Origin: Candidatus Wolfebacteria bacterium
GTDB taxonomy: Bacteria > Patescibacteriota > Minisyncoccia > UBA6257 > UBA9933
Reading direction: 5' to 3'
Length of the DNA: 64,000 nucleotides
Assembly (NCBI GenBank): GCA_016188075.1
Contig: JACPIO010000017.1
Span: forward strand, 23,406-87,405
The translations under genes and the position numbers were made by a program. Each line of letters opens with the position of its first letter. Position 1 is the stretch's first letter. Shown here one piece after another: positions 1,871-40,479 of this stretch. Under the pieces are notes generated by a model that worked only from the letters and a program-made list of their open reading frames with translations, was not told the origin of the DNA and made no database searches.

Positions 1871-2007
1871 AATTCAAGCGCCAGCAATTCCTCGCCGCTT
1901 GCGGCGAGGATGAATGGCGTAGATAGGAATTTCGGCGGAGCCGACCCTTATTGGATCGAACCCGCCCTGATGCCGCGTTCCGACTTGTCGGAACGCGGAC
2001 GGGTTCA
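1867..2007 (+). repeat. ~135-nt structured repeat element, copy 1 (long-loop variant)
   Basis: Shares TAATYCAAGCGCCAGCAATTCCTCGCCGCTTGCGGCGAGGATGAATGGCG...GGCGGAGCCGACCCTTATTGGATCGAACCCGCCCTGATGCCGCG-loop-CGCGGACGGGTTCA with copies at 7529, 16025 and 38525. Confidence 0.8.
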
Positions 2008-2493
2008 ATTTCTAATGGCTCTCTCTATTTTCGTAAGTATTTCGCGCGTTTCTTTAATTTTCTCTAATGATTCTTCGATATTGTTATTCTTTAAATTTTC
2101 CTCCGCGATTTTAAAATCATTGACTGCCTCCTGAAGCAGGATGTCGATTTTCGGACCAGGAGAAACGTTCTCCGAAGAAGGTTTATTTTGAAGAATATAT
2201 TTAATCTCGTTCAATTTAAGCTGAATCGAAGCATTAATTTCATCCGCCTGGACTACCAGAGCGTCTTTTCGGGCCTGGTGCGTAAAATAAAAAATCAGGA
2301 GAGTTGAAATAACGACTGCTCCGCCGATCTCGAGGCTGGTTTGTAAGCGAAAGGTTTTTAATACGTCAAAAAAGCGCGCTTTTTCCGCTTTGGGTCCGGA
2401 AGCCAGTATTAAAAATCGGGATCGGGCCGAATACGCCGAATCCGGCTCGATTTTCCTTAGTTCTTTTAAATAAGTTAATAAGTTTTTATTCAT
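2005..2493 (-). CDS. hypothetical membrane/coiled-coil protein, possible anti-sigma factor
   Basis: 162 aa; its start overlaps the stop of the upstream ECF sigma gene by 4 nt; one TM segment plus a coiled-coil C-terminus. Function assigned from position only. Confidence 0.45.
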   Translation of the reverse strand: MNKNLLTYLKELRKIEPDSAYSARSRFLILASGPKAEKARFFDVLKTFRLQTSLEIGGAVVISTLLIFYFTHQARKDALVVQADEINASIQLKLNEIKYILQNKPSSENVSPGPKIDILLQEAVNDFKIAEENLKNNNIEESLEKIKETREILTKIERAIRN

Positions 2494-5298: not shown

Positions 5299-5332
5299 AG
5301 ACGGTAATTGGTAATTAGTAATTAGAAATTTT

Positions 5333-6898: not shown

Positions 6899-7531
6899 AT
6901 GACTATTACCTGGTACGGCGAAGGCAGTTTTAAAATTCAGACCGGAGAAACCTCGCTTCTCACGGATCCGTTTGACCCTATAACAGGGCTTACTCCTCCC
7001 CGGTTTAAGCCTCAAATTATTCTCAAAACCCTGAATGCTATCGCTGATCTTTCGGCGAAGGACGCCAAAAATCGAGATGGGCTTTCCATAAACGGCGCGG
7101 GCGAATACAATCTAAGGGGCATAAATATCTTGGGCATTCCGCTCACAGAAGAATCAACCGGCAAATTTTTAAAAACCATCTATATTCTGGAAGCCGAGGA
7201 TATCCGGCTTTGTCTTCTCGGGCACCTGTCCGAAGCGCCGGAAACGGCCACTCTTCAGAAAATCGGGGAGATTGACATTCTTTTTATTCCGGCCGGCGGC
7301 AAACCGTTTCTCGATCAAAAATCAAGTTTTAAGCTCGTGAAGCAGATTGAACCCAAAATAGTCATTCCATCATTTTTTAAACTGCCGGGCCTGAAACGTC
7401 CGGCGGCCGACGTCCAAACCTTCCTCGATGAAGTGAATCACAAAAAAATAGATTCCCAAGAAAAATTATCCATAAAAAGCAAAGAGTTAAGAGAAAGCAA
7501 ATCAATGCAAATCGCGGTTTTAAAAATTTAA
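6899..7531 (+). CDS. MBL-fold metal-dependent hydrolase (UPF0173-like)
   Basis: 210 aa; LTDPFDP... and CLLGHLSE fit the beta-lactamase superfamily pattern. Confidence 0.5.
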   Translation: MTITWYGEGSFKIQTGETSLLTDPFDPITGLTPPRFKPQIILKTLNAIADLSAKDAKNRDGLSINGAGEYNLRGINILGIPLTEESTGKFLKTIYILEAEDIRLCLLGHLSEAPETATLQKIGEIDILFIPAGGKPFLDQKSSFKLVKQIEPKIVIPSFFKLPGLKRPAADVQTFLDEVNHKKIDSQEKLSIKSKELRESKSMQIAVLKI

Positions 7532-7660
7532 TCCAAGCGCCAGCAATTCCTCGCCGCTTGCGGCGAGGATGAATGGCGCGACTAGAAATCTCGGCGGAGC
7601 CGACCCTTATTGGATCGAACCCGCCCTGATGCCGCGCCGCTTGCGGCGCGGACGGGTTCA
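7529..7660 (+). repeat. ~135-nt structured repeat element, copy 2 (short-loop variant)
   Basis: See copy 1. Terminal hairpin is GCCGCGCCGC-ttg-CGGCGCGGAC here versus GCCGCGTTCCGAC-ttg-TCGGAACGCGGAC in copy 1, a compensatory change. Confidence 0.8.
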
Positions 7661-7662
7661 CA

Positions 7663-7953
7663 ATGCAAGCGATAAAAAAATTCCTCGAAAAAATTCAAAA
7701 TTCCGACGAGGCGGCGAAAAAACGCTGGGTGGCGGGCGCGAGCGCCCTTGCCATGATCATGATCATTTTTTTCTGGGCTTTCACAATGAATCCGTTAGCC
7801 GATTCGACCTCTCGTCTTCGCGGAGAGGCGGGGCCGGGTTTCTGGGAAATTTTTACAAGCGGTTTAAGAGAGGTAACGGCGTCGATCAAAAATGAATTGA
7901 AAAATCTGTCTTCAACATTAATCGAAGAGCGATCAATTACCATAGAGAAATAA
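7663..7953 (+). CDS. hypothetical small membrane protein
   Basis: 96 aa, one TM helix; its stop overlaps the gyrA start. Confidence 0.4.
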
Positions 7954-10460
7954 TGATTATGGAAAATCAAAAAAATCAGCGCGTCGAAAAACGCGAAATC
8001 ACGGAAGAATTGAAAGAATCCTATTTGAACTACGCGATGTCCGTTATCGTCTCGCGCGCTCTGCCGGACGTCCGGGACGGCTTAAAGCCGGTGCAGCGCC
8101 GAATTCTCTGGACAATGTGGGACGACGGCTTAACCCACAGCGCCAAATTTCGGAAATCAGCTAACGTAGTCGGGGCGGTTTTGGGCCGTTACCACCCGCA
8201 CGGCGATGCGGCAGTTTACGACGCTCTGGCCCGCATGGCCCAAGACTTTTCGCTGCGGTATCCTTTAGTTGACGGTCAGGGTAATTGGGGCAGCGTTGAC
8301 GGGGACAATCAGGCGGCCATGCGTTACACGGAGGCAAGACTTTCCAAGATTGCCGAGGAAACGCTTTTCGATATCGAAAAGGAAACTGTTGATTGGCAGC
8401 CGAATTATGACGCCACGCGCCAGGAACCAAAAGTTTTACCGGCCAAACTTCCCAGTCTTCTTTTAAACGGCACAATGGGCATTGCCGTGGGCATGGCCAC
8501 GAACATCCCTCCACATAACTTGGGAGAAGTCATTGATGCCGCCGACCACCTAATCGTGAATCCCAAAGCAACGACCGAGGATTTGATGAATCACATCCAA
8601 GGCCCGGATTTCCCGACCGGCGGGATTATTTACAATAAAAAAGCCATTGTCGAAGCTTATATTTCCGGCCGCGGCCCCATCACCTGCCGAGCCAAATCCG
8701 AAATCGAAGAGCGCAAAGCCGGACAATTCAATATCGTAGTTACGGAAATCCCCTATCAAATCAATAAATCCGAACTTTTAATCAAAATCGCCGAGCTCGT
8801 TAACGAGAAAAAAATTGAAGGCATCCGCGACCTTCGAGATGAAAGCGACAGAGACGGAATGAGGATTGTGATTGAACTCAAGACCGACGCGGTGCCGCAG
8901 AAAATTTTAAATCAGCTTTATAAACACACAGACCTCCAAAAAGATTTTCATTTGAATATGATTGCTTTGGTTCGGGGTATCGAACCCCAACTTTTATCCT
9001 TGAAAGAAATTTTGGCCGCCTACCTCGAACACCGAAGAGTGGTGGTGGAAAAACGAACCCGGTTCGAACTTCAGAAAGCCAAAGAAAGGGCTCATATTCT
9101 CGAAGGTTTGTCCCGTGCGCTTTCGGTCATTGATAAAATCATCGCCACCATCAAAAAATCAAAAGACCGGGACGAGGCGCGGGTCAATTTGGTAAAAAAT
9201 TTCAAACTGACGGAAATCCAGGCAACGGCGATTTTGGAGATGCGGCTTCAGACTTTAGCGGCTTTGGAACGCCAGAAAATCGAGGACGAACTCGAAGAAA
9301 AAAGAAAATTGATTATCGAGCTCGAAGCCATTCTCAAAAGCCCGGAGAAAATTCAAAAAATCATAAAAAACGAACTTCAGGAATTGAAAAAAAATTACGG
9401 CGACGAACGCCGAACCCAAGTGGTCGCAGGCGGCCTTCAAGAATTCAAACAGGAAGATTTAGTACCTCAAGAAGAAACCATTATTACTTTCTCGGAAGAC
9501 GGCTACGTGAAACGACTCCCGCCCTCAAGCTTTAAAACGCAGAAACGCGGCGGCAAGGGATTAATTGGTCAGGAAATGAACGAGGAAGACCTTTTGGCGC
9601 ATTTCATTTCCGCCGATACCCACGACAATATTTTATTTTTTACCACCCGGGGCCGGGCCTTTCAGACCAAAGTCTATGAAATACCGGTCGGCAGCCGCAC
9701 TGCCAAGGGAAAACTGATTCAGAATTTTTTGGAAATCCCCGCGGAGGAAACCGTGAGCGCCATTGTTACCTACGCGGCTCACAGACTACAGACTACCGAC
9801 TACAGTAAAAATCAGAAAGCCGTAGACCGTAGTCTGTCGACGCTAGACAATTACTTAGTAATGGCGACTAAAAATGGCTTGATAAAAAAGACTTCGCTCG
9901 CGGATTTTTCTAATGTTCGTCGGAGCGGCATTCTGGCTATGAAACTTCAAAACGACGACCAGCTTAAATGGGCAAAACTTTCTTCGGGCAAAGATGAAAT
10001 CATTTTGGCAACTGGCCGCGGACAAGCCATCAGATTCAAAGAAGCCGATCTCCGGGCCATGGGCAGGACTGCCTCCGGGGTCAAAGCCATAAGGCTAAAG
10101 AGTGGTGATTTTGTCGCTGGACTTGATATAATTAAGACAAGTTCCAAATTACCAATTACCAATTACAAATTACTTATTGTGACCGAAAATGGGTTTGCCA
10201 AACAGACTTCTTTGAAAGATTACAAAATTCAGAAACGCGGGGGCGGCGGCATAAAAACCGCTAAGGTTAATCAAAAAACCGGGCGCGTGATCGCGAGTCA
10301 AATTCTCGAAAATCAGGAAGACTTACTTGCGATCTCAACCAAAGGACAATTGATTCGAACGAAAATCGCGAGTATTCGCTTAGCGGGCCGCGCCACCTCC
10401 GGAGTGCGCATTATGAAATTAAAAGAAGGAGATAAAGTTGCCGGAATAGTATGTCTTTAA
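7953..10460 (+). CDS. gyrA: DNA gyrase subunit A
   Basis: 835 aa; [25 protein letters not shown], active-site region and C-terminal beta-pinwheel repeats. Carries in-frame low-complexity insertions at 9781-9850 and 10141-10175. Confidence 0.95.
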
Positions 10461-11725
10461 CCCGCAATCAAACAATCATCATCGGCGCCGGCGTGGTCGT
10501 TGTTATCGTCATTGTTTTGATTTTAGTCGGCGTTCTGCCCGGGCTTCAGAGCCCGACCGATAAGCCGCCGGCAGTCACGCTTACTGTCTGGGGCATTGAC
10601 GACCAGCCGGCTTTTAACGCTTTGATTGATGGTTATAAAAAAATCCGGCCCAATGCTTCAGTCCTCTACGCCCAAATCCCGGAAGCAAGCTACGAAGAAA
10701 ATCTTGTGAATTCTTTGGCGGCCGGAACCGGCCCGGATGTTTTTATGATCCCAAACGGCCTGATCCGAAAACATGGCGGAAAAATGTTGGCGGCGCCGGC
10801 AAATCAGCTTTCCTTAGGAATGCTTCGCCAGCTTTTCCCTCAAGTTGTCGAGCAAAATTTAGTGGTTCAAAATCAAATTTACAGCCTGCCGCTTTATTTG
10901 GATACCCTGGCGCTTTTTTACAACAAAGACATTTTTGACGCCAAGACCATTTCCCTGCCGCCCCAAACCTGGAAAGATTTTCAAAACATTATTCCTAAAA
11001 TTCGGGAAAATAATGAATCAAATCAGATTGTGAAAGCCGCGGCCGCGATCGGCGGATCAAAAATCAGCATTAAATCCGCCTCGGATATCTTAAATCTTTT
11101 AATGATGCAATTTGGTAATCCCAAAGTAACCACCGAGGAATCTATAAATTTTGACGATCAAGGCCTTCAAGCTTTAAATTTTTATCTCCAATTTGCGAAT
11201 CCCGTAAGTCCGTCCTATACCTGGAACGATAACTTGGGAAATTCGATTGACAATTTCAGTCAGGGAAAAACCGCGATGATTTTCGCCTACAACGGAGACG
11301 CGCCTCTAATTAAAGCTAAAAGTCCGTTTTTGAATTTCGGCATCGCGGCAATGCCCCAATTCAATTTATCCCAACCCGTAAACCAGCCGAATTACTGGGG
11401 ACTCGCTGTTTCCCGCCAAACCAAAAAAGCGGTCTGGGCATGGGATTTTATTATAAATACAACTACGAACCAATTGATTATCGAGAATTACATTCAAATC
11501 AAAGACCAGTCGCCGGGCCTCCGCACTTTAATCCAAAATTATGTTAATGATCCGAATCTCGGTGTTTTCGTAAAACAAGCCCTAACAGCCCGGGCTTGGC
11601 CCGAACCGGATCATAATTTAGTCGGGCAATCGTTTTCCAACGGCATTGCTTCGGTTTTAACCGGCCAAGTTTCGCCAAAACAAGCGCTGGATAGAATTAC
11701 CAATGAAATCAATGCGCTACAATGA
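10451..11725 (+). CDS. ABC transporter substrate-binding protein (family 1, sugar-type)
   Basis: 424 aa; N-terminal TM anchor, SBP_bac_1-like body. Confidence 0.65.
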
Positions 11726-12204
11726 AATATCAAAGATTAAAAATAAAAGATAAGATTTTTCCGTTTTTAATTTGTGTTTTTGCTTTTTGGTTTTTAATTT
11801 TTGATTTATTACCGGCGCATGCCGCCATCCTCCCTGCTCCGAGCGGTCCCGGCGGCCAATATAACTACTGCGACCTACTTCATTTAGGTCAAAACATTAT
11901 TAACTTTATCGTTTCCCTTATCTTCCCTATCGCCACGGTAATGGTTGTTGTCGGCGGAATTTTCATTATGACCGCCCGAGAAAAACCGGATCAAGCCAAG
12001 AAAGGCCGGGAAATCGCAACAGCTGCTGTGATCGGAATTCTTATTACCTTGCTCTCCTGGCTTATATTGGATACAATATTTAAAATAGTGGCTGGTAGGA
12101 GCCCGCAAGCAGGCGGCGGGCCAGCAGTAATTCAAGGGTTGGGCCGCCCATGGAACGAACTAAGATGTGGTAGCCTTCCTTATGGATCAAATCCGGGCTA
12201 CTAG
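11722..12204 (+). CDS. TrbC/VirB2-like pilin-family protein, paralog 1
   Basis: Signal peptide plus two hydrophobic helices separated by a short basic loop (…MTAREKPDQAKKGREIA…), matching VirB2/TrbC topology; first of five tandem paralogs. Confidence 0.45.
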   Translation: MKYQRLKIKDKIFPFLICVFAFWFLIFDLLPAHAAILPAPSGPGGQYNYCDLLHLGQNIINFIVSLIFPIATVMVVVGGIFIMTAREKPDQAKKGREIATAAVIGILITLLSWLILDTIFKIVAGRSPQAGGGPAVIQGLGRPWNELRCGSLPYGSNPGY

Positions 12205-12245
12205 AAATACGGATCAGGGACGTCGCAAGTCCTTAGGTTCAGAAA

Positions 12246-12650
12246 TTGGCGAAGAAAATGAACACCCAAAAATATCAAAAAATATCCATAAGTATCTATA
12301 AGTATCTTTTAATATCTGTAAGTATCTTTTTTTTGATTGCGAATGTTGTTTTGGCTCAAACCTATGACGCCGACCAAGCTGCCCGTGATCTCGCCAGAGG
12401 TTCACCAATTGACAGGCCGGAAAAAGTTTTTCTGGTTCTCAAAAAAATACTTCAGTGGACATACACCATTTTTTTTATAATGGCAGTCTATTTTCTTTTG
12501 CTGGCGGCCTTTACGTATTTGTCCGCCAGCGGTAATCCTGAAAAAATCAAAGCCGCTTCCAGCCAGCTTCTCTGGGGAATGGTCGCTATTGCCGTAGCCT
12601 TAATTTCTGTCGGGGCGGCAGCGATAATCAGGGGTTTTCTTACTCCTTAA
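12246..12650 (+). CDS. TrbC/VirB2-like pilin-family protein, paralog 2
   Basis: Signal peptide (…VVLAQT), helix - SASGNPEKIKAASS - helix. Confidence 0.5.
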   Translation: MAKKMNTQKYQKISISIYKYLLISVSIFFLIANVVLAQTYDADQAARDLARGSPIDRPEKVFLVLKKILQWTYTIFFIMAVYFLLLAAFTYLSASGNPEKIKAASSQLLWGMVAIAVALISVGAAAIIRGFLTP

Positions 12651-12694
12651 ATAAACTTCAGAGATTAAAATCGCTTGATCCTTCCAAATTTATA

Positions 12695-13120
12695 ATGAAT
12701 TTCCAAAAAATTATAAAAAATTCTAAAAAAATCTTGACTTTTTTCATCCTATTTTCCAACTTCTTGTTTCTCGTTCCGCATCCATTAGCTTTAGCGGCCA
12801 TCACTCCGGGCCAAGTTCCGACCGCGGGAGATTTAGACGTTACCCCCTCGCCGGTAAACAGCCCCCAAGACTTGGAACGGGTTACCAAGAACGCTACTAG
12901 CGGTTTTTATGTAAGTTTTTTTATTCTAGCTGTTCTGTTTATTTTAATTGCTGCTTATAAATATCTTTTTGCAATGGGAGACGTTGAAAAACTAAAAAGC
13001 GCTCGCCTTATGCTTATTTATGCGGCAATCGCTATTGCCGTGGCCTTAATGGCTGTTAGTTTCGAGCTGATTATTAAAAATTTTTTAGCTCTTCCCAATG
13101 CCGGGATCCCCAACCAATAA
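12695..13120 (+). CDS. TrbC/VirB2-like pilin-family protein, paralog 3
   Basis: Signal peptide, helix - AMGDVEKLKSARL - helix. Confidence 0.5.
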   Translation: MNFQKIIKNSKKILTFFILFSNFLFLVPHPLALAAITPGQVPTAGDLDVTPSPVNSPQDLERVTKNATSGFYVSFFILAVLFILIAAYKYLFAMGDVEKLKSARLMLIYAAIAIAVALMAVSFELIIKNFLALPNAGIPNQ

Positions 13121-13220
13121 ATAGGAAGTGTTTTATAAATACCTTGAAATTTTCTTCTTAATACCTTAAAATTAAACTATATAAAAGTAAAAAGGTCGAA
13201 ATAAACTTTATCAATCTAAA

Positions 13221-13619
13221 ATGAAATTAACAAACAACAAAAAAATCTTCATAGTCGGCGGAATAACAATTTTAACCTTATTACTAGCAACATCCGCCTT
13301 GGCCCAAAATCCTGATCCTACAACACGGACCGGCATAAGTCGTATAGCGGGAGTCCCAACAAACCCAAACGAACTCCTTACTAGGGTAGGCGACTTCGTA
13401 AGATGGGCATATATTCTCTTTTTTATTCTAGCTGTTCTGTTTGTTCTGATTGCAGCCTATACCTACCTTACAGCTGCTGGCAACCAGGAAAAAATCGATA
13501 AGGCTAAAACTATGCTGATTTACTCTGCCGTTGCGGTTGCTGTGGCCTTAATGGCAATAGTATTTAACACTATTATAGGAGGATTCGTCGGTGGTGGCGG
13601 CGCCATCCCCAATCCATAA
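13221..13619 (+). CDS. TrbC/VirB2-like pilin-family protein, paralog 4
   Basis: Signal peptide (SALAQN), helix - AAGNQEKIDKAKT - helix, Gly-rich C-terminus. Confidence 0.5.
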   Translation: MKLTNNKKIFIVGGITILTLLLATSALAQNPDPTTRTGISRIAGVPTNPNELLTRVGDFVRWAYILFFILAVLFVLIAAYTYLTAAGNQEKIDKAKTMLIYSAVAVAVALMAIVFNTIIGGFVGGGGAIPNP

Positions 13620-13776
13620 GTCATTAACTATCCCCCGCACTCTTGGTTATTTAATGGTTAGTGCGGGGCAGGGCCAAGAACGATATTTTTTATTGTTTTT
13701 CGCCCTGCCCGGTAGTAGACCCTGCCCAATTTTACGATTTAATCTTACGACTTACGATGTCGTAAATAATTAATAC

Positions 13777-14163
13777 TTGCTAATGTCTAAATTTTTTAGA
13801 AAAATTTTTTACGCAGCGGTGGTTTCCTTTTTACCGATCTTTTTTATAAGATTAAAGGTTTTCGCAACAGAGGTTGGTGGCACAAGCGGCCAAACCTATA
13901 CCCTTCAAGACCCTCTCGGCAACCAAAATATTCTTACCATCATAGGCCGGGTTATTGACTACCTAATTTACATTAGCGTTCCGCTCCTTGCCTTATTTAT
14001 TCTCTGGGGCGGTTTTCAGATTTTGGGCGCCAGAGGCGATGTGGAAAAAGTCAAAAACGGCCGGGCCACTATTCAATGGGCAGTCATCGGCTTTACGATT
14101 ATTTTAGTATCAAAAGGAGTAGCTCTTATTCTTTTAAGAATTTTGTACCCTTCTAGCCCCTAA
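13777..14163 (+). CDS. TrbC/VirB2-like pilin-family protein, paralog 5
   Basis: TM, helix - GARGDVEKVKNGRA - helix. Confidence 0.45.
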   Translation: MLMSKFFRKIFYAAVVSFLPIFFIRLKVFATEVGGTSGQTYTLQDPLGNQNILTIIGRVIDYLIYISVPLLALFILWGGFQILGARGDVEKVKNGRATIQWAVIGFTIILVSKGVALILLRILYPSSP

Positions 14164-15811: not shown

Positions 15812-16024
15812 CGTCCTTCTCCTTCCGACCCGTGTCGCTCTGGACGACTGGGTCTCATGCGGGTTATTAGGTTATCTTGCTCTCGCGTCCACTAAAGTGA
15901 ACGCGCACTAAGTCAAAGTACAACATCCCGAGTGTCAACTCGGAACTGCCTTAATATAAGCACAAATCGCTAAAAAAGTCAACATCTTGTTTTATTTTAC
16001 TTATTCCCCTTTTTCCCGTTTCTT

Positions 16025-16156
16025 TAATCCAAACGCCAGCAATTCCTCGCCGCTTGTATCGAGGATGAATGGCGCAACTAAGAATCTCGGCGGAGCCGAC
16101 CCTTATTGGATCGAACCCGCCCTGATGCCGCGCCGCTTGCGGCGCGGACGGGTTCA
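16025..16156 (+). repeat. ~135-nt structured repeat element, copy 3
   Basis: First hairpin variant CCTCGCCGCTTGTATCGAGG, short-loop terminal hairpin. An inverted fragment of the same element (catcctcgccgcaagcggcgagg) lies at 16564-16586. Confidence 0.8.
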
Positions 16157-16201
16157 CTCCTCCGCCAATCTTACATTAACCTTGTATTCCCCCAACTCGC
16201 T

Positions 16202-17658
16202 GCTACGTTTAAACGTAGCAGTGAGAACGTAGCAACGAGGGAGGAACGCCGACAGACGAAAAACCCAGGGGAGCAAAAACCATTAAAACTCTTTTCCTTA
16301 GGAGCCGGCTTGATGATAAATCAAACAATTCTGTCCGCTACGTTTAAACGTAGCGGCGAGGCATACATCAAAAATACAGAGAATGACCGACCGAAAGAAA
16401 TCAATCAGTTCCTCCCGTTCGTTCTCCTGCTCGAAATTAATACTCCGTAGTTAACGTTTCGCAAAATTTTAGAGTTGCGCTCGCGTCATTATCTTTCACG
16501 ACATTATCTTTTAAAACTGCCTGCTACGTTTAAACGTAGCAGGCAGGATAACCATAAAACATCCTCGCCGCAAGCGGCGAGGTATTCGGCGATTAGCGCC
16601 ATAAACAAACTTTTGAAAAGATATTCCAATCTAAAAAGATATTCCGGGCGAAAACTAAAGTTGATCAAGAAAATCCCAGCGACCCCTTCCCTTGTAGGCC
16701 GGAATTTTTCTTCTTTTGTACCGCGGTTCGCGGAATCTTAACGGAATATTTTTTAATTTCTTATCCGGGTTGATTTTTTCCCTCCTTTTTAATCCCCTTT
16801 TCACAAAACTAATGGTGTCGGGACTTACGTCAACAATTTCACCTATTTTCCGGTAAGTTAAACCGCGTTCCAAAAGCAAGAGAGTCGCCAATCTTCTTTC
16901 AAGAAGATTAATTTCGCTTCCCGAAAGAAATTTATTTAAACCGCAGAGCAAGTCTTTTTCGGAGGTTGCTCCCCTTATCTCCGTCAAGAACTTTTGCCAT
17001 GCCGCCCTCTTCAAAATCTCCCCTATGTATTTTTTATTAACATTGACCATCTTTTTATTCTTTTAACCATTACTCCGGCTCCATTCACCATTCTAACAGT
17101 CTTTTGCTAATCCTTAAATTATAAAACAAGTAATTATATATTGCTATGTTTAAACATAGCAGGTTAACTGAAAAAGAAGGGTAGAAGGGCTCCGGATTCT
17201 ATTATCTCTATATCAGCATGAGTGACGTCAGTATATCAATATAAACGATATCAGCAGAGATCATTTCGGCGCAGGACGATTCTCTTCGATCTGCTACGTT
17301 TAAACGTAGCAGACAGAGTAAGGATAATCGCAGCTTAGCCAAAAAAACCAGTCCAAATTGCAAAACTATTATTTTCTCTCCACTACGTTTAAACGTAGCG
17401 CGCAGGGTAGGAATAGACAGAAGATGGTCGAGTAACTGGCGCGAATAAACAGCGGCTCCGAATACACGACAGCCGAGAAAGCAAGAGGGGCAAATATTTT
17501 CAGAAAGCAATACTGCGAAAAATACCGCAATGCTACGTTTAAACATAGCAGCGAGACGTAAATCAACTACCTCGCGGTTAGCACTCGCAAAATTTTGAAT
17601 TTATGCTCGTAACGCTATCGTCTAACTTCTAAAATTGCACGCTACGTTTAAACGTAGC
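16202..17658. repeat. array of eight 18-bp perfect palindromes GCTACGTTTAAACGTAGC (irregular spacing)
   Basis: Cores at 16202, 16336, 16523, 17143, 17293, 17382, 17532 and 17641. Flanks extend the palindrome differently in each copy (a perfect 30-mer at 16517-16546). The copy at 17143 carries a compensatory C>T/G>A pair. Confidence 0.85.
16655..17050 (-). CDS. TrpR-like (YerC/YecD family) helix-turn-helix protein
   Basis: 131 aa; ...LTYRKIGEIVDVSPDTISFVKRGLKR matches the Trp-repressor/YerC HTH; basic C-terminal tail. Sits inside the palindrome array. Confidence 0.6.
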   Translation of the reverse strand: MVNVNKKYIGEILKRAAWQKFLTEIRGATSEKDLLCGLNKFLSGSEINLLERRLATLLLLERGLTYRKIGEIVDVSPDTISFVKRGLKRREKINPDKKLKNIPLRFREPRYKRRKIPAYKGRGRWDFLDQL

Positions 17659-17743
17659 ACGTCGCTCTAGGGCGACGAAATTTCAAAAGTGAAAGTAGGA
17701 ATAAAAATGAAAATGAGAAAGAAACGAGGAAGAAAAGATAGAA

Positions 17744-17772
17744 TTGACGACAGGCGACAATTAAATTAAATT
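17744..17772 (+). promoter_or_regulatory. promoter candidate for tRNA-Leu(UAG) (TTGACG-17-TAAATT)
   Basis: -35-like TTGACG at 17744 and -10-like TAAATT at 17767, about 8 nt before the tRNA 5' end. Confidence 0.3.
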
Positions 17773-17779
17773 AAATGGT

Positions 17780-18226: not shown

Positions 18227-21200
18227 TTAGCGCGAGAAGAGTTTCAAAAGCTCCGCGATTTTTGTTTGAAGCAGAGAAACATTGGCTATAAGCTCCGCGG
18301 GATTGGCGTAGAGAGTGGTTGAGGTCGAAATCGGGGTTGAGGTCGCGTACGGCGGAGTCGAAGTAACGGAATAGCCTACTGCAGGAACAACCGTTATTGT
18401 ATTACCAGCTGCTGATTGAATTCCGGCCGGAATAGAGGCGTTGGAGTTTCGTCCGTAAGCCCGGATATCGGAGGCTGAACCAATGGCAAAAATGTATTGT
18501 CCGCCCGAAGAAGCTCCGCCGGAGATAAGTGGAGCGACGTCAGCTCGCAATTCCAACTCAATAGCGCTATTTTGCGGGACAATGGCCGGGATTGAAAGAT
18601 TAAAGACGTAAACCCAAGTGTCTCTATTAGTTGAACTGGCAATGATTGGTCCAGCCACCACCGTGCCGCTATTCAATAATCTGGCATTTTGGAAAGATGG
18701 CGTTGTCGCGTTGTTGGTCGAGACTGCGGTTATGGTTAAAGCGTCAACCCTAATTGGTTCGGCGGAGTTGTTGGCAAAACGAAAGGTGGCTAAACTGTTA
18801 TTGACTGATCCCATCACCACTTGCGTGGACGACGCGGTATTTGGGCTAATGGATACTCTAAGAAAGGCTGACGTATCCGGCGTGGGCGGAGGATTGCCAG
18901 TTGCTGGCGCCCCGGCAACACGGCGGCAAACATCAAATTGAAGCATTTTCTGGATTGTTAGATTCCCGACAATGCCTGTGCCATTCGGGTTAAGTCCTCT
19001 CGCGATTAGAGCATCGCGCAGGTAATCACGTTGAAATGCTTTTACGGCATCAAAGGTTGGATTAAGAATCAAGTCGAATGAGTAATGTCTATCCTCCAGA
19101 TGCCCGATAAATTGACGGATGGATGAATCCGGGTAAGCGCTTGGATTTATATATCCCAAACTCACCAAACACTCCTGGACCTGGGCTTTTTGAGTCGTGG
19201 TTAGATTTACCGCGGAAATATCCGGGTCAAGTGGGCCGCCGAATCTTCTCAATGGCAATCCAGCACCACCACTCCCTGGCCCTCCTATACCACCCATACC
19301 ACCAGCCGTACCTCCTATACCACCTGGTCCACCTCCAGATGCAGCAGCTTCTGCAGCGGCGGCCGTTGCTGCTGCCTCTGCTTGTTCCGCTAGTCCTTGC
19401 GCTCCCGCAGAAGGACCCGCGGTATCTGACGCTCCGCCGCCAGCTTGAGAAACCGTCCCTCCTGCGCCTGTCGAAGAAATAATCGGTCCTTGATTGGCGC
19501 ACAATTGATTTAATTTTCTTTTTGTATAAGTGCCGACAATGCCCGTGCCGTTTTCTCGGCCGCCAGAAGTGTAAATTTCCGAGGAAAATTGATTTTGAAT
19601 TAGTATAACCGATGACGAGGTTTGAGGCCCAAAGGTACCCAAGCCAAGAGCTTCGCTACTAGGCAAAGTAAATTGAGCAGACGGAATCGTTGCCAAACAT
19701 TGTTGTAATCGAACAACTTGGCTTCTATTGTTGTTGGGTGAATCTCGGCGCAACTCCGTTGAATCATTGTAAAGATCAAAAAGCGGTCCCCGAACTGCCG
19801 GCAAAATCTCAAAATTCAAAAGATTAGCTGTGTCAAAAACATTACTACCGGTAATCGCGGTGTGAACTCTTAAGACAAGACTGGAGAGTTCCGAAACGTC
19901 GCGGAAGGTCAAGCGAACCGAAGTACCGCGCGTCAAATCATACTGGGTTTCCGGGTTAAAACTTTCAATCCGGGCGTTTTGAGACACATAACTCCACTTA
20001 ACCCGATCACGGCAAATCTGTCCTTCTCGGCAGAAAGGGGCGGCCCAGGTAAAAGTGGCGGATTCTCCGGCGTTAAATCTGGTTTTTCCGTCCGGCAAAA
20101 GAGAGAAATTAGAGTTGCCTAAGTTGGGAACAAGGGCTTGGGCTGTGGCCGGCGAAGTTAAGGGACCAGAAGTCGGCGCGCCAGAACCAGGAGCAACTAC
20201 TCCGGGACCGCCAGTTCGCGGTCCGACTGTTACTGAAATACTTCTTCTGCCTATTTCGCCTTGGCCAAACGCGGTAGTCGAAAAAAGCGCTCTCAAAACA
20301 ATGTTGACGGTTCTCGAAGTGCTCGTGCTGTTAGTGATTAAAACTTGAGCCGGGAACAAAGTTTCGTGGAAATTATAAGGACCGTTACCTTGTCTTCCGC
20401 AGTATTCTCGGCCGGCATAACCAACGGTCACTGCGTTATCGTCATTTCCTTCACAGCCAAGAGTAATAATGGGAGAAAAACCAAGACCCGGCCGCTTGGA
20501 CGCATTCAGAGCTACCGTGGTTCCGGAATTAATTGTTATAGATGTAACTGGAGTCGGATTGCTTGCGGAGATGGCGGTAAAAGATGAAATAACCGGGCCA
20601 GAGTCAGCAACGCCCGAGTCAGGAGACGGCGCCGAAAGAGTTTGAACCACCCTAAAGATACCCGCGTTAGTGCTTGGGGCAGACCGCGCTCCGGGAATGG
20701 CAACTGGCCTCCCGCCTAACCAGTAGTAACCGTCGGGCACAATATAATACTGATCCGGCATAATCACCCCCAACGTATTTGAGCTTGCCGCTGGAGTGGG
20801 ATTAAGAGGATTACCGATAAAATACGGGTTATCGCCGTTATAATTTACAGCAATAGTGTCGCCGACTTGGGCCCCGGATCCGATATTAGCCTTGATAGTT
20901 AAAAGTCTGTAGCTGCCGCGAGGAATTCTAACCGGAGTTGTTAATTCAATAAAAGTGGCATTAAGAAATGCAGATGCTGAGAAATTTGCGCTGCCGACAT
21001 TGACTGCGCCGTTCCACAAGGTGAGTCCGTTTATAGCCCGCGGGTTGGTGCCACCGAATTTCAATCCAATCCGCCGGAGATCAATGTCATAGCTATCTGA
21101 AGCGAGACGCAAAATTGTTGTTGTAGTATTTTGGGAGTTGGCAAGAACTTCCAAGTTGCCACCGCGCGGCGAGGTATCGTCGAGAGTTATCGTAAAGGCG

Positions 21201-23047
21201 CCGGTCGTTGGAGCAGGAGTCTGGGTAGGCGAAGGAGTGGCGCCCACCGCAGAGCTTGACCCTACGGCAATGGACACGCTTTTTTGGTCGCTCAATACAT
21301 TGCTTGAGGGATTGGTATTGCTATAAACGCTGTAAGTTTTCAGAATCAGAGTAATTGTTTTTTGAGTATTGGCGCTGTTCGTTAAACGAACCAAAGCCGG
21401 AAAAGTGCTAATAATAACTCCATAAGGCCCGTTTATAACATGATTGTCCGCCGGATGATGACCGCAATAAACTTGGTTATTAGAAACCAAGACTAACGAA
21501 ACATCGCCGCTATCATTGCCCTGGCATTCAAGAGTAGCGGCGGCAACGTTTGCTTCGGAATTTAAACGGGCAGTTAAAGTATTAGATCCGCCGGAATTTA
21601 CATACGGAGAAAAGGCGCTGAAGCTTGAAAGGGCCGGCGCAGGCGTTGGAGTTGGAGTTGGTGTTGGTGTTGGTGTTGGTGTTGGTGTTGTGGCTGGCGC
21701 GCTAACCGTTATTGTGAACGGGCTAGTTTGAGCCGAACAATTGCTTTCGTCAGACGAAGCACAAGCCCAGCCGTAGAGATAATAATTGCCCGTCGCAAGG
21801 GTTGGTGAGATATTCAGGATATAAGGATTAGCTGCGCCGACGGAGGTCCGTGGAAAAGATGATACGCCATCATATCTCAAGCTAAAGTGATTGACCGTAC
21901 CACTTACGCCAAGAAAGCTAACCTGGATAGAGGTAGCGCCCTGGGTGACGGCGGAGGGGGCTGAAACCGAAGAAAGAGTTGGCGCCGGAGTCGGGGTTGA
22001 CGAGACCGGCGCGCTCACAGTCGCGGTTGTGGTTTTGTATGGAGAAGGGGTGCCGTCGTTTTTGAAAGCAGCTCCTTGGAGTTCATAAGCTCCGGCGGTA
22101 GTGGGTGTAAAAGAAATTCCGGTACAGAATCCGGTTACGGCAGTAGCAGGATTCCATACGGACGTTCCCTGAACTCTATACTGGAACCCGCAGAAATCAT
22201 TACTGGCGTACCCACTAAAGTTTACGGTCATCTGATTTCCAAGCGTCACCGAGTTCGCCGAGATACTGGTGAGGGTTGGAGTGGTTGGCGTCGGAGTGGG
22301 AGCCGGAGAAACCGTAACAGTAACCACGCTATTGCTGGATCTGCTGTTATCAGCGCCCAGGGCATAAAGAGTAAAAGTGACCAATCCGGGAGATATGCTG
22401 CTATTATTTACGGTAACGACATTACTGGAATTACTAACAACGTTGGCAGGAACATTAGGGGTAAATCCCGGAATAGAAATACTGGGGTTATCCGAAGAAA
22501 AAGAAAGCCAGCCGCTTACGGCATTTTGAGCCGAAGTGTTTAAGGTTACGTTCGATCCAGATGGAACCGTGGTTCCGTTCTGAGGCGAAGAAAGAGAGGC
22601 GGTTACCGGCGGAGCAGCGATGGTAAACGTGTCCGTGGTCGCACCAATTGGCATTGATTGGCCGTCTTTGGATCCATTCCAGTATACGTTAACGGTGTGA
22701 GTGCCGACATTATTGAAAGTGCAGGTGGCGCTATAAGATCCGCCGCAGTTATTAAGATAGGTTCCGTCGAGATTCACGGTCATTATGCCAGCAATCCCCC
22801 AATTGGAAGGCGGCTGACTCGGATAAGTTCCGGTTGAATCACTGCGATAAACCGAAGCATTGAGCGTGGCGGTACTTCCCGAGACGGTAACGGCTGTAAA
22901 GTTGCAAAAACCAAAAGTTGACAAAGTGTAGCCCGGCACCGCGGCGCATTTAGTATCGGCCTGGGCTTCTTTTGTCAAAATCCCCCCGAAAACTCCGAGG
23001 AAAACGACCGCTAATAATATAATGAAAAAATACTTAAAATTTTTCAT
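18227..23047 (-). CDS. giant secreted/cell-surface protein (1606 aa) with PG-binding-like domain
   Basis: Signal peptide MKNFKYFFIILLAVVFLGV; many Thr/Pro linkers (TPTPTPTPTPTPTPTPAP), Ser/Thr/Asn-rich beta-rich segments, a Gly-rich stretch. Near the C-terminus is a PG_binding_1-like segment (TQKAQVQECLVSLGYI...FDAVKAFQRDYL...GTGIVGNLT). Confidence 0.7.
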   Translation of the reverse strand: MKNFKYFFIILLAVVFLGVFGGILTKEAQADTKCAAVPGYTLSTFGFCNFTAVTVSGSTATLNASVYRSDSTGTYPSQPPSNWGIAGIMTVNLDGTYLNNCGGSYSATCTFNNVGTHTVNVYWNGSKDGQSMPIGATTDTFTIAAPPVTASLSSPQNGTTVPSGSNVTLNTSAQNAVSGWLSFSSDNPSISIPGFTPNVPANVVSNSSNVVTVNNSSISPGLVTFTLYALGADNSRSSNSVVTVTVSPAPTPTPTTPTLTSISANSVTLGNQMTVNFSGYASNDFCGFQYRVQGTSVWNPATAVTGFCTGISFTPTTAGAYELQGAAFKNDGTPSPYKTTTATVSAPVSSTPTPAPTLSSVSAPSAVTQGATSIQVSFLGVSGTVNHFSLRYDGVSSFPRTSVGAANPYILNISPTLATGNYYLYGWACASSDESNCSAQTSPFTITVSAPATTPTPTPTPTPTPTPTPAPALSSFSAFSPYVNSGGSNTLTARLNSEANVAAATLECQGNDSGDVSLVLVSNNQVYCGHHPADNHVINGPYGVIISTFPALVRLTNSANTQKTITLILKTYSVYSNTNPSSNVLSDQKSVSIAVGSSSAVGATPSPTQTPAPTTGAFTITLDDTSPRGGNLEVLANSQNTTTTILRLASDSYDIDLRRIGLKFGGTNPRAINGLTLWNGAVNVGSANFSASAFLNATFIELTTPVRIPRGSYRLLTIKANIGSGAQVGDTIAVNYNGDNPYFIGNPLNPTPAASSNTLGVIMPDQYYIVPDGYYWLGGRPVAIPGARSAPSTNAGIFRVVQTLSAPSPDSGVADSGPVISSFTAISASNPTPVTSITINSGTTVALNASKRPGLGFSPIITLGCEGNDDNAVTVGYAGREYCGRQGNGPYNFHETLFPAQVLITNSTSTSRTVNIVLRALFSTTAFGQGEIGRRSISVTVGPRTGGPGVVAPGSGAPTSGPLTSPATAQALVPNLGNSNFSLLPDGKTRFNAGESATFTWAAPFCREGQICRDRVKWSYVSQNARIESFNPETQYDLTRGTSVRLTFRDVSELSSLVLRVHTAITGSNVFDTANLLNFEILPAVRGPLFDLYNDSTELRRDSPNNNRSQVVRLQQCLATIPSAQFTLPSSEALGLGTFGPQTSSSVILIQNQFSSEIYTSGGRENGTGIVGTYTKRKLNQLCANQGPIISSTGAGGTVSQAGGGASDTAGPSAGAQGLAEQAEAAATAAAAEAAASGGGPGGIGGTAGGMGGIGGPGSGGAGLPLRRFGGPLDPDISAVNLTTTQKAQVQECLVSLGYINPSAYPDSSIRQFIGHLEDRHYSFDLILNPTFDAVKAFQRDYLRDALIARGLNPNGTGIVGNLTIQKMLQFDVCRRVAGAPATGNPPPTPDTSAFLRVSISPNTASSTQVVMGSVNNSLATFRFANNSAEPIRVDALTITAVSTNNATTPSFQNARLLNSGTVVAGPIIASSTNRDTWVYVFNLSIPAIVPQNSAIELELRADVAPLISGGASSGGQYIFAIGSASDIRAYGRNSNASIPAGIQSAAGNTITVVPAVGYSVTSTPPYATSTPISTSTTLYANPAELIANVSLLQTKIAELLKLFSR

Positions 23048-23996: not shown

Positions 23997-24095
23997 AAAT
24001 TATTTAATTAAAAACCGTAGCCACTTTTCCTGACGTAATTTTAGCAGGATTCATAGCGGAAAAACAAGATGGGGCGGTTGATAACTAAGCACATG

Positions 24096-24179
24096 TGCCG
24101 GAGGAGGGAGTTGAACCCTCATGAGATTGCTCTCGCACGCTCTTGAGGCGTGTGCGTCTGCCAATTCCGCCACCCCGGC
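24096..24179 (-). tRNA. tRNA-Leu (CAA)
   Basis: Reverse complement GCCGGGGTGGCGGAATTGGCAGACGCACACGCCTCAAGAGCGTG + long variable arm + GAGGGTTCAACTCCCTCCTCCGGCA; anticodon loop CTCAAGA. Confidence 0.85.
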
Positions 24180-24256
24180 AAAATAAAAACACATATTGCT
24201 TGCGGGGTTATTTTACGCTAAAATAAAAAATTAGTAAATCGCGACTGCTTAAATTT

Positions 24257-25270
24257 ATGGAACCAGAAGAAAATTCAAACATTGCGCCTTCCTCATCCCT
24301 TATTCCCGAACCGCCGGAAAAGCCGGTATCCGCGGAAATTTCAGAGCTGGCCGCGCCAACCGAGCCGGTTTCCACTCCGGCTCCTTCTGATATTCCATTT
24401 TCTCCCCGGCCTCCGATAAATCCGCCCGCCCTAAAAAGGAAATTTCCCGAGGCGATTTTTCAGATTGAAACTGACAAAATCAAACCCAATCCGCATCAGC
24501 CGCGCCGCGACTTTGACGAAGACTCCCTAAAGGAACTGGCGGCTTCCATCCGGGAACTGGGCATTCTTCAGCCGCTCGTTGTCTCTAAAATCGAAAAAGA
24601 AACAGATCGCGGCACGGACGTGGAATACGAACTTATAGCCGGCGAACGGCGTTTGATGGCCGTGAAAATACTTGGCTGGGAAAGAGTGCCGGCAATCGTT
24701 CGAACCGTTGATTCCCAATCCGAAAAATTAGAAATGGCCGTGGTGGAAAATCTCCAGCGGTCGAATTTGAATCCGCTGGAAACCGCTCGAGCCTACGCCA
24801 AACTTCAGGACGAATTCCGGCTGACTCAAAGAGAAATCGGCGCCAAAATCGGCAAAAGCCGGGAGACGGTTTCCAACACCTTAAGACTTTTGAATCTGCC
24901 CACGGAAATCCAGGATGCCCTGGCAAAAAACCAAATAAACGAAAGCCAGGCGCGGCTCTTGCTTCAAATCGAAGACCCGAAAGAGCAGCAAATAATTTTC
25001 GAGGATTTATTAAGCCGTAATTTAAGCGTCCGAGAATTAAAATCAAGAATCCGGAAAACCAAACCCCAAAAAACTTCCGGCGAATCCGCTCCGACATTCA
25101 AAGCCACTGATCCGGAAATTCTGAATTTGGAGGAAAAATTAACGGAAATTTTAGGAGCCAAAGTGCAAATTCAAAAAACCGAAGCCGGCGGAAAAATCAT
25201 CATTGATTTTTATTCGGCGGAAGAAATCAAGGGCATTCTCCAGAAATTAAATCCTCATCCGCAAAACTAA
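24257..25270 (+). CDS. parB: chromosome partitioning protein ParB/Spo0J
   Basis: 337 aa; Pro-rich N-terminal extension, ParB box ELIAGERRLMAVKILGWERVPAIV, HTH LTQREIGAKIGKSRETVSNTLRLL. Confidence 0.85.
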   Translation: MEPEENSNIAPSSSLIPEPPEKPVSAEISELAAPTEPVSTPAPSDIPFSPRPPINPPALKRKFPEAIFQIETDKIKPNPHQPRRDFDEDSLKELAASIRELGILQPLVVSKIEKETDRGTDVEYELIAGERRLMAVKILGWERVPAIVRTVDSQSEKLEMAVVENLQRSNLNPLETARAYAKLQDEFRLTQREIGAKIGKSRETVSNTLRLLNLPTEIQDALAKNQINESQARLLLQIEDPKEQQIIFEDLLSRNLSVRELKSRIRKTKPQKTSGESAPTFKATDPEILNLEEKLTEILGAKVQIQKTEAGGKIIIDFYSAEEIKGILQKLNPHPQN

Positions 25271-25274
25271 ACCC

Positions 25275-26819: not shown

Positions 26820-26892
26820 AAGGATTGTTTCTTCAATTTTTTATCCTTCTTTTTCTTTATCTTCCTTGTTTTCTCCGGCAGGGGGCGCGGAC

Positions 26893-27031
26893 GGATTTTG
26901 CCACGAGGCAAAATCGCAGCTTGGCCGCCCCGATTTTAATCGGGGCGAGCCTCGCCTGCGACTGGATTTATCCATGAAGCATAGTCGCAGGCGGGCCGCC
27001 CACTATAACGGGCGAGCCTCGCCTGCGGGCT
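26893..27031. repeat. GC-rich palindromic repeat units (…ccgccccgattttaatcggggcgagcctcgcc…)
   Basis: Units at 26893-26950 and 26975-27031 in the rel-topA intergenic region/topA tail; related to 18128-18165; a further partial unit at 27084-27110. Confidence 0.55.
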
Positions 27032-29102: not shown

Positions 29103-29114
29103 ATTCTATTTCTA

Positions 29115-30230: not shown

Positions 30231-30329
30231 CTTTACATTTTAGTATATTTTGCGGGAAATTCAACGATAACGAGATTCATAAAACATAAAACATTTGCGC
30301 TTCATGCTTTATGCTTCATGATTTGTGAA

Positions 30330-31214: not shown

Positions 31215-31297
31215 AGACTAAAACATTGAATAATATTATAAATGAGTAAGCGCGAATTGGCGAATTCTCGCGAATATCGCAAATTAAATCTTTTGGC

Positions 31298-31825
31298 ATG
31301 CAATTCAAAAAATATTTTTTAACTCGAGTCGGAATTGATCTCGCGATCATTATTGCCGCTGCCATCCTCGCGGTCTTTATCGGCTCCGACATGCGAAACC
31401 GCGCCGCCAAAATTACTTCATTAAGAGACGACATTGATTTCTGGACTCAATCAACCGAATCCCTGGCCTTGCTCCGCGAGGACCGGGCTCGAGCCCAAAA
31501 CTATTCCGCCGAACTTCAGAATAGGTTGCCCAGCCGAGACGAGCTTTTAAATTTTTCACGGGATTTAAACATCATCGCCAATCAAAATAAGGTGGGTTTT
31601 AATTCTTCTTTGGGAAACGAAGAGAGGGGCGCCAACGATAAATTGGGCAGAGTGTCTTTTAATTTGACAGCCGAAGGCGCGCTTGATAACATTTTAAACC
31701 TTGCGAAGGGAATAAAAAACAGCCGATACTTTGTCAATACGACCAATTTCGATCTTGTGGCGAAACCCGGAGACGGTTTCCGGCTTTCTATGAACGGACA
31801 GGTATTTTCGTTTTATTCACGCTAA
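31298..31825 (+). CDS. hypothetical membrane-anchored protein (PilO-like topology, speculative)
   Basis: 175 aa; N-terminal TM helix, coiled coil, beta-rich C-terminus. Confidence 0.35.
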   Translation: MQFKKYFLTRVGIDLAIIIAAAILAVFIGSDMRNRAAKITSLRDDIDFWTQSTESLALLREDRARAQNYSAELQNRLPSRDELLNFSRDLNIIANQNKVGFNSSLGNEERGANDKLGRVSFNLTAEGALDNILNLAKGIKNSRYFVNTTNFDLVAKPGDGFRLSMNGQVFSFYSR

Positions 31826-37862: not shown

Positions 37863-37870
37863 AATTATCG

Positions 37871-37888
37871 GTGCAGTTAACTGCACCA
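37871..37888 (+). terminator. hairpin ggtgcagttaactgcacc after polX
   Basis: Perfect 7-bp stem directly after the polX stop; a second GC hairpin at 37920-37950 (gccccggctcgctgaatgacgaaaccggggc). Confidence 0.4.
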
Positions 37889-40065: not shown

Positions 40066-40066
40066 G

Positions 40067-40460: not shown

Positions 40461-40479
40461 GTGCGCGGATTTATTTAGT

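Follow-up and report, generated by a model that had tools for sequence, protein, structure and literature searches.

A multicopy repeat with IS200/IS605-like ends in a Candidatus Wolfebacteria genome

A 64-kb stretch of a Candidatus Wolfebacteria metagenome-assembled genome (MAG), hereafter the window, whose positions serve as coordinates throughout, carries four co-oriented (+ strand) copies of a repeat, each 130-136 nt long, which a first-pass annotation had put forward as either a structured RNA or a miniature mobile element. The question raised by this locus is which of these the repeat is, and, if it is mobile, what kind of element it represents. We find that the repeat is real, occurs in several copies and has so far been seen in this organism alone; it is almost certainly a recently spread, genome-specific repeat and not a conserved RNA gene. 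Of the explanations that agree with the features we tested, the most specific, which we hold at a probability of about 0.5, is that it would be a non-autonomous, gene-less family of IS200/IS605 "peel-and-paste" insertion sequences (ISs) that resembles the palindrome-associated transposable elements (PATEs) of that family and targets TTTAA.

Copies, boundaries and distribution of the repeat

Counted from the invariant left motif TTTAAT through GGGTTCA, the copies lie at 1868-2007, 7527-7660, 16023-16156 and 38524-38663, in agreement with the four + strand places and the >90% identity reported at first: mean column identity is 92% in the trimmed alignment, and a covariance model (CM) scores the copies at 166-175 bits. 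All four share, without a single difference, a 44-nt core (GGCGGAGCCGACCCTTATTGGATCGAACCCGCCCTGATGCCGCG), for which the shuffle expectation is 0 matches. Edges are sharp, with similarity beginning at TTTAAT and stopping at GGGTTCA (the next base is A in copy 1 and C in the other three), and the flanking sequences beyond them are mutually unrelated in an alignment of the four copies with their flanks. The GC content of the repeat is 56-63%, vs. ~45% for the window. Bounded according to the transposon anatomy described below (i.e., with TTTAA assigned to the left flank), the copies, the parts of copy 2 and a further fragment are:

1873-2008, + strand: copy 1, 136 nt; left hairpin intact, right tip long, end TCAA; TTTAA at 1868-1872; 169.7 bits
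7532-7661, + strand: copy 2, 130 nt; left hairpin intact, right tip short, end TCAC; TTTAA at 7527-7531; 168.6 bits
16028-16157, + strand: copy 3, 130 nt; upper left stem broken (TAT), right tip short, end TCAC; TTTAA at 16023-16027; 166.5 bits
38529-38664, + strand: copy 4, 136 nt; upper left stem broken, right tip long, end TCAC; TTTAA at 38524-38528; 174.9 bits
7545-7568, + strand: left end of copy 2, with the putative left guide (GL) AATT (7545-7548) followed by the hairpin CCTCGCCGC-TT-GCGGCGAGG (7549-7568)
7591-7636, + strand: central block, invariant in all four copies, with a small hairpin TCGGC-GGA-GCCGA, TTGGAT (the complement of the left-end ATCCAA) and GAACCCG, which forms the 5' arm of the outer right helix
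7628-7661, + strand: right end of copy 2, with the putative right guide (GR) GATG (7628-7631), the hairpin CCGCGCCGC-TT-GCGGCGCGG (7632-7651), a 6-nt spacer ACGGGT and the putative right cleavage motif (CR) TCAC (7658-7661)
16560-16586, - strand: degenerate solo left-end fragment, consisting of the hairpin CCTCGCCGC-TT-GCGGCGAGG and a few flanking bases; 15.7 bits, E = 0.41

Copy 4 had been described as a mosaic of two variants, which it is, and in fact every combination of left and right hairpin variants occurs among the four copies, pointing to recombination or gene conversion among copies together with partial decay. The inverted piece of the first hairpin that had also been noticed extends over 16560-16586, where 26 of 27 positions are complementary to that hairpin. 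Mosaic copies and a decayed solo left end are as expected for a decaying IS family.

That the repeat reflects an assembly or binning artefact, or chance similarity, is highly improbable. The source is a MAG, and metagenome assemblies can collapse or misplace repeats, but no match to a 44-mer is expected by chance, and Logan contigs from four independent SRA runs, colinear with the window, run into copies 1, 2 and 3 and stop at the same positions, where the copies turn non-unique (1978, 7555 and 16050/16051). One such contig (L001) ends at 7555, inside copy 2, and contigs from all four runs end at 16050/16051 in copy 3. Because assemblies with the same unique flanks break at these three copies, the repeat is not an artefact of one contig's assembly.

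Searches beyond the window returned little. The exact core 24-mer has 0 matches in 185,579 GTDB representative genomes; a degenerate core 26-mer has 13 in JGI metagenomes, all of them chance matches inside GC-rich coding sequences; viral contigs (two patterns) and plasmids and phages (by blastn) have none. The covariance model built from the four copies (CM R1), run against 80 gyrA loci of related Paceibacteria (1.27 Mb) in search of further copies, recovered only the window copies and a Logan stub, with no copy in the related loci. Comparison of the six-frame translation of the repeat with 5.8 billion proteins gave a single match, MBI2514954.1 (HYV91_02080; P0121 in our set), whose N-terminus as annotated (...VNPSAPQAARHQGGFDPIRVGSAEISSCAIHPRRKRRGIAGVWIK...) is what a fifth copy gives when translated in the minus frame; it lies on another contig (28.5 kb), assigned to the same MAG because of neighbouring accession numbers. 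The bounds of this fifth copy, read from WIK (= TTTAATCCA) and V in the translation, are compatible with TTTAAT... and ...TCAC. The first ~55 residues of this 400-aa "hypothetical protein" are repeat translation, and its start is mis-annotated, the fusion open reading frame (ORF) being caused by an open frame through the GC-rich repeat.

The window GyrA is at most 74% identical to that of any GTDB species representative, its best matches being Candidatus Wolfebacteria and other Paceibacteria/Patescibacteria MAGs. The metallo-beta-lactamase (MBL)-fold hydrolase beside copy 2 is identical to NCBI MBI2515035.1 (Candidatus Wolfebacteria bacterium, 87.5-kb contig), and its next-best homologue among the 5.8 billion proteins is only 60% identical; there is therefore no close relative for synteny or empty-site comparison. 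Exact-protein look-ups for strain-level empty sites or extensions of the window yielded only short Logan contigs that break at the repeats, or no record at all.

Ends of the repeat compared with IS608

Terminal inverted repeats (TIRs) are absent at the copy boundaries, since neither of the ends TCCAAGCG... and ...GGGTTCAC is an inverted version of the other, and so are target-site duplications (TSDs), the left flanks all being TTTAA and the right flanks TTTC, AATG, TCCT and TCTC. The mobile-element half of the original proposal thus gains from the sharp edges, unrelated flanks, near-identity, lineage restriction, mosaicism and IS200/IS605-like ends of the repeat, and loses the specific form of a MITE (miniature inverted-repeat transposable element) with TIRs and TSDs.

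What the copies do share is an asymmetric arrangement. TTTAA stands directly 5' of all four, with similarity ending immediately upstream, and the fifth copy is compatible with the same arrangement from its translation. Two subterminal hairpins, in the same orientation and one base pair apart, follow the pattern CC(T/G)CGCCGC-TT-GCGGCG(A/C)GG. The foot of the left hairpin lies 17 nt from the TTTAA| junction, and the right end, which reads CCGCGCCGC-TT-GCGGCGCGGACGGGTTCAC| from its hairpin onward, lies exactly 10 nt from the right foot.

This arrangement resembles that of IS608, which inserts 3' of TTAC and leaves this tetranucleotide on the left flank, outside the IS (PMC3201880; PMC5934647). 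Its left cleavage site lies 19 nt 5' of the left hairpin foot (PMC3201880), and its right cleavage motif, TCAA, lies inside the IS, 10 nt 3' of the right foot (PMC3201880; PMC5934647). Guide tetranucleotides directly 5' of each foot (GL AAAG, GR GAAT) read these cleavage sites (PMC3201880; PMC5934647), with A+16 pairing with T-3 and A+17 with T-4 (PMC5934647). From the published guides and cleavage motifs, which supply the third pair, we infer the rule G1:C2, G2:C1, G4:C4; no other mapping yields Watson-Crick pairs at each end of IS608.

Both ends of the repeat conform to this rule. On the left, GL AATT pairs with the cleavage motif (CL) TTAA (A:T, A:T, T:A), and on the right, GR GATG pairs with CR TCAC (G:C, A:T, G:C); at position 3, both guides have T and both cleavage motifs have A. 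Shuffles of the same segments satisfy the rule at both ends with probability 0.0002 at fixed positions and ~0.01 when the search is flexible (two choices of foot and three or four of cut site at each end). The repeat is like IS608 in that its putative target tetranucleotide would stay on the left flank only (TTAC in IS608, T-TTAA here), in carrying its putative right cleavage motif inside the element and 10 nt from the foot (TCAA in IS608, TCAC/TCAA here), in the distance of the left junction from its foot (19 nt vs. 17 nt), and in its pattern of guide pairing (AAAG/TTAC and GAAT/TCAA in IS608; AATT/TTAA and GATG/TCAC here). It differs in having no sequence similarity to IS608, in having neither tnpA nor tnpB, and in having T rather than A at guide position 3.

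Gene context and reconstructed empty sites

The copies occupy varied settings in a window that carries housekeeping genes (gyrA, topA, relA/spoT, clpB, tRNA synthetases, tmRNA/smpB and recA). Copy 1 sits between convergent HU and anti-sigma-like genes, copy 2 between the co-directional MBL-fold hydrolase gene and ORF96-gyrA, copy 3 upstream of the promoter of a Band 7 gene, and copy 4 within a 1.1-kb non-coding stretch. The copies had all been called intergenic, which needs qualifying for copies 1 and 2, whose ends overlap stop codons of neighbouring ORFs: the TAA in the left motif of copy 2 is the stop codon of ORF 6899-7531 (+), and the last TCA of copy 1, read in reverse complement, terminates ORF 2005-2493 (-). 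In both cases the overlap is explained if the copy inserted into a TTAA that overlapped a TAA stop.

Deleting copies in silico gives clean empty sites. When copy 2 (7532-7661) is removed, ...AAAAATTTAA is joined to AATGCAAGCG..., giving TTTAA|AATG, in which the hydrolase stop TAA is followed by one A and the ATG of ORF 7663-7953, a typical compact TAA-A-ATG junction. Removal of copy 1 (1873-2008) joins ...GGGACTATTTAA to TTTCTAATGG..., and ORF 2005-2493 (-), which today ends ...AIRN-TGA with a stop built from the last bases of the copy, still encodes 162 aa with an unchanged C-terminus (...AIRN) and a TAA stop.

Two distant TrpR-like helix-turn-helix paralogues are encoded at 16655-17050 (-) and 38991-39386 (-) (PF01371, E about 1e-8), each within 1-2 kb without credible ORFs (15812-17779 and 37863-39519) that is studded with its own perfect palindrome: TGCTACGTTTAAACGTAGCA seven times at 16201-17660, and CTGTATAG-nnnn-CTATACAG four times at 38464-39413. 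Copies 3 and 4 and the solo hairpin fragment fall inside these regions. We considered and set aside a functional link between the repeat and the TrpR-like loci, given that two of the four copies lie there but so does ~30% of the non-coding DNA of the window (chance estimated at ~0.35), and we treat the insertions as tolerated ones. On the - strand, ATGTTTTATG follows the solo fragment, which sits 70 nt downstream of the TrpR-like gene 16655-17050 and so, judging by sequence, may now serve as the terminator of that gene; at 16582-16563 it is the sole repeat-derived hairpin with terminator form.

A proposed non-autonomous IS200/IS605 element

By analogy with IS608, we infer a transposase, strand specificity and actual mobility for the repeat, in the following scheme. 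A Y1 HUH transposase, encoded elsewhere or lost, would bind both subterminal hairpins on the single-stranded + ("top") strand and cut twice, once 3' of the flanking TTTAA on the left and once 3' of the right-end TCAC, the two sites being recognised through pairing with the tetranucleotide 5' of each foot (AATT-TTAA and GATG-TCAC). The element would leave as a single-stranded circle, with the predicted junction ACGGGTTCAC|TCCAAGCGCC, and reinsert 3' of another TTTAA without target duplication.

Gene-less PATE-like elements are documented for the IS200/IS605 family (PMC10055086, PMC7290912), for instance in Haloquadratum walsbyi (PMC3119063), Geobacillus stearothermophilus (PMC10055086) and Halanaerobium hydrogeniformans (PMC7290912). 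Like these, the repeat is short (PATEs span roughly 100-300 nt), has a left and a right end with subterminal palindromes, lacks an ORF, TIRs and TSDs, is multicopy in one genome, and is presumably mobilised in trans. It departs from them in that no parental IS or TnpA with matching ends was seen, in its host, a MAG of the Patescibacteria (Candidate Phyla Radiation, CPR), and in its hairpins, which are perfect 9-bp GC-rich stems, each nested in a second, outer helix.

Several observations weigh against this assignment. Pfam scans, which covered 55 ORFs of the window plus the off-window P0121, found no Y1_Tnp, OrfB_IS605 or other transposase, so that neither a Y1 transposase nor TnpB is seen in the 64-kb window, where the unassigned small ORFs lack HUH-like sequence and the sole recombinase in the scans is Xer-like (a tyrosine recombinase, 60004-60912). 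A regular expression for the Y1 motif (YHIVW..KYR) had 0 matches in a total of 1.46 Mb, made up of the window and the related loci fetched. Neither an empty site nor an excision junction nor an insertion polymorphism was seen, and TTTAA could belong to the element itself. The putative TCAC is buried in a predicted 7-bp outer helix (GAACCCG/CGGGTTC), the stems are perfect whereas IS608 hairpins are imperfect with an extrahelical T, the TCAA end of copy 1 breaks the G4:C4 pair, and the left hairpin is damaged in two copies (3 and 4). The match of guides to cleavage motifs was found after looking for it, and would arise by chance in ~1% of cases.

Orientation may also tell against strict lagging-strand targeting. 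Cumulative GC skew falls monotonically over the window with no turning point, and the replication component of the skew at 4-fold sites comes to about -0.09 in the 1-16 kb part and to between about +0.06 and +0.10 in the 32-64 kb part (~0 overall); if this pattern is real, copies 1-3 and copy 4 would lie on opposite replichores and yet share one orientation. The inverted solo fragment, for its part, means that + orientation is not absolute.

The apparent switch in skew sign lies at ~24000-32000, near parB, relA, topA and dprA, and hints weakly that the window contains a replication origin or terminus.

RNA structure and coding potential

The first-pass annotation had argued for a structured RNA on the basis of compensatory changes, and as it was argued this case is weak. 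Folding is indeed stable relative to shuffles (RNA z = -4.9 on the + strand and -5.4 on the - strand; DNA z -4.4 to -6.0), but this is expected of any palindrome-rich sequence and discriminates neither strand nor molecule. When pairs are counted on the two-domain structure (ATCCAA/TTGGAT; GCGCCA/TGGCGC around hairpin 1; TCGGC/GCCGA; GAACCCG/CGGGTTC around hairpin 2), 36 of the 45 stem pairs are invariant across the four copies, which are so few and so nearly identical that a covariation test has low power. Differences had been described as structure-preserving. This holds for the tip of hairpin 2, where three adjacent pairs are changed on both sides along with a 6-nt change in length (CCGC-TT-GCGG <-> TTCCGAC-TT-GTCGGAA), although these amount to one block event, and such a swap of a palindromic tip is explained equally well by a DNA hairpin. 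It does not hold for hairpin 1, where copies 3 and 4 carry CGG>TAT on one side only, at the cost of 2-3 pairs. Nor is the outer helix GCGCCA/TGGCGC conserved throughout: it reads ACGCCA in copy 3 and TGGCGT in copy 1.

Single transitions point to no one strand. Three in copy 1 (C7T, C53T and C64T) keep a G-U pair on the + strand, while G11A (copy 3) and G42A (copy 4) do so only on the - strand, and the central hairpin (UCGAUCC/GGGUCGG) is fully paired on the - strand only, by way of G-U; with wobble kept three times on one strand and twice on the other, there is no consistent RNA strand. As had been suspected, the repeat belongs to no recognisable RNA family: Rfam 15 gave nothing at gathering threshold, the best sub-threshold E-values in a 221-nt search being 0.05-0.3. 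ARAGORN found no tRNA-like gene at the repeats, and the minus-strand GGGTTCGATCC, considered as a T-loop, is a superficial look-alike only. There is no promoter-like site within the repeat, and none is conserved beside it, where upstream flanks are unrelated. The element could yet give rise to RNA as a by-product, for instance an omega-RNA-like transcript.

Several other identities were considered and rejected. The main hairpins of full copies carry no T-tract, so that no full copy is terminator-like through them, and as an intrinsic terminator only the solo fragment (16563-16582, -) qualifies. A coding function is at odds with a linker that differs non-synonymously and with a stop at the start of copy 1 on the - strand; there is one open frame per strand, and open frames are expected at ~60% GC. 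The defining features of an integron attC site are absent.

Alternative explanations

The repeat might instead be a dispersed selfish or structural repeat of another kind, spread by a non-Y1 mechanism and able to affect mRNA stability or termination when transcribed: a relative of REP, ERIC or MIRU sequences, or a derivative of a Y2-HUH rolling-circle element such as IS91 or Helitrons. We regard this as possible but unlikely. It shares the evidence for recent spread and lineage restriction, and it fits the missing cognate Y1 transposase (window Pfam scans and motif scan), the strong two-domain hairpin folding on either strand (z about -4.4 to -6.0) and the terminator-type position of the solo hairpin at 16563-16582, although full copies, having no T-tract after either hairpin, are not intrinsic terminators. 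IS91 and Helitron elements lack TIRs and TSDs, carry a single subterminal 3' hairpin at ~10 nt from their end, and insert at a specific tetranucleotide; Helitron termini are 5' TC ... CTRR 3', and the IS91 target (GTTC/CTTG) lies outside the end. Helitron-like traits of the repeat are a 5' TC start in three of four copies, insertion between A and T in three of four, and a hairpin 10 nt from the 3' end; it differs in ending with TCAC, not CTRR, and in having two matching hairpins with guide/cleavage pairing at both ends. Repetitive extragenic palindromic sequences and the bacterial interspersed mosaic elements that they form (REP/BIME), which occur with RAYT (TnpA-REP) transposases, are single palindromes of 20-40 nt with a 5' GTAG/GTGG head, usually in inverted pairs (PMC2817692). 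They resemble the repeat as GC-rich extragenic palindromes with a Y1-related HUH connection that are confined to particular genomes. We rejected this identity since the repeat is a 130-136-nt unit with two differentiated ends whose hairpins stand in direct orientation, without inverted BIME-like pairing, and the tetranucleotides 5' of its hairpins are AATT and GATG, not GTAG/GTGG. TIR-type MITEs such as Correia elements, with terminal inverted repeats and target-site duplications (PMC10969869), are similar in size, intergenic, multicopy and able to overlap gene ends; they too were rejected, the repeat having neither of these hallmarks. Any such assignment leaves unexplained what is specific to IS200/IS605 elements, namely two like hairpins in one orientation and guide/cleavage complementarity at both ends.

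A multicopy family of structured non-coding RNAs that act as RNA, whether as a trans-acting sRNA or as an omega-RNA-like guide carried by an element, seems to us distinctly improbable. In its favour are the GC content, high for a ~45% GC genome, the folding stability on both strands, the hairpin tip swap that keeps pairing, the three C>T changes of copy 1 that keep G-U on the + strand, and the precedent that PATEs of the IS200/IS605 family "often encode omega-RNAs" (PMC10055086). Set against these, covariation comes down to the one block event while CGG>TAT breaks the first hairpin, neither wobble-preserving transitions nor the central hairpin agree on a strand, the best Rfam E-value is 0.05, the repeat has no conserved promoter inside it or next to it, and its copies are placed without any regular relationship to the genes around them; searches of related genomes (GTDB representatives and the 80 Paceibacteria loci) found no homologue, and there is no TnpB or IscB in the 64-kb window. 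Still less probable, in our estimation, is that the repeat is more than inert transposon debris, either as a PATE with an omega-RNA-like guide or as part of a new single-strand transposition system. As a guide carrier, its right-hand two-thirds may be transcribed, reading into each right flank (the gyrA operon, the sigma/anti-sigma operon and the TrpR-like loci), and a TnpB/IscB-type nuclease encoded elsewhere in the reduced CPR genome may use the RNA in trans; as a new system, its enzyme may not be a recognisable Y1 transposase.

If the non-autonomous IS200/IS605 assignment is true, an ultra-small Patescibacteria genome recently hosted an active single-strand (HUH) transposon family, whose insertions hit TTTAA motifs that overlap the stops of housekeeping operons. 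The repeat would then offer a clean natural example of the IS608 guide/cleavage rule with other tetranucleotides (TTAA/AATT and TCAC/GATG). It is a modest new example of an already known kind of element in an unusual host, a reduced CPR genome, and opens no new biological question; its practical effect is to fragment short-read assemblies of this organism and to produce at least one mis-annotated fusion ORF (MBI2514954.1).

Other features of the window

Several observations elsewhere in the window concern unusual coding sequences. A 1606-aa ORF at 18227-23047 (-) has no Pfam domain at E <= 0.001 and contains a (GTTGGT)x7.7 array at 21645-21690. An isoleucyl-tRNA-synthetase-like ORF of 1207 aa (56140-59763, -) has an inserted histidine-phosphatase (His_Phos_1) domain at residues 529-691. 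Between topA and dprA, a 371-aa ORF (29115-30230, -) has a weak LAGLIDADG_3 match and, from its sequence, may be a free-standing homing endonuclease. Pyruvate phosphate dikinase is encoded in two overlapping ORFs on the - strand at 47387-49913 (PPDK_N at 48564-49913 and PEP-utilizers_C at 47387-48595), which may reflect a frameshift, an error in sequencing or a gene that is truly split. Inside the folD-like ORF 62325-62843 there is a perfect 38-nt x 2 tandem duplication (62679-62755, +), which, since 38 is not a multiple of 3, may truncate or frameshift that ORF. The interval 40066-41110, ~1 kb downstream of a NUDIX gene, holds only Arg-rich, junk-looking ORFs with no Pfam or Rfam match, and could be a pseudogene or an undescribed non-coding region.

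Other repeats are also present. Many period-7 tandem arrays of 4-5 copies each occur in both orientations, several of them at gene boundaries, with units including AATTACT, GTAATTA, ATTTCGG and TTTCTAA (for example at 1459-1539, 5304-5330, 10147-10173, 27832-27859, 48698-48729, 50968-51011, 56516-56555 and 63065-63093). Finally, five consecutive small paralogous genes with T4SS_pilin-like domains at 11722-14163 (+) have a 137-nt DNA repeat family (D2) in common.

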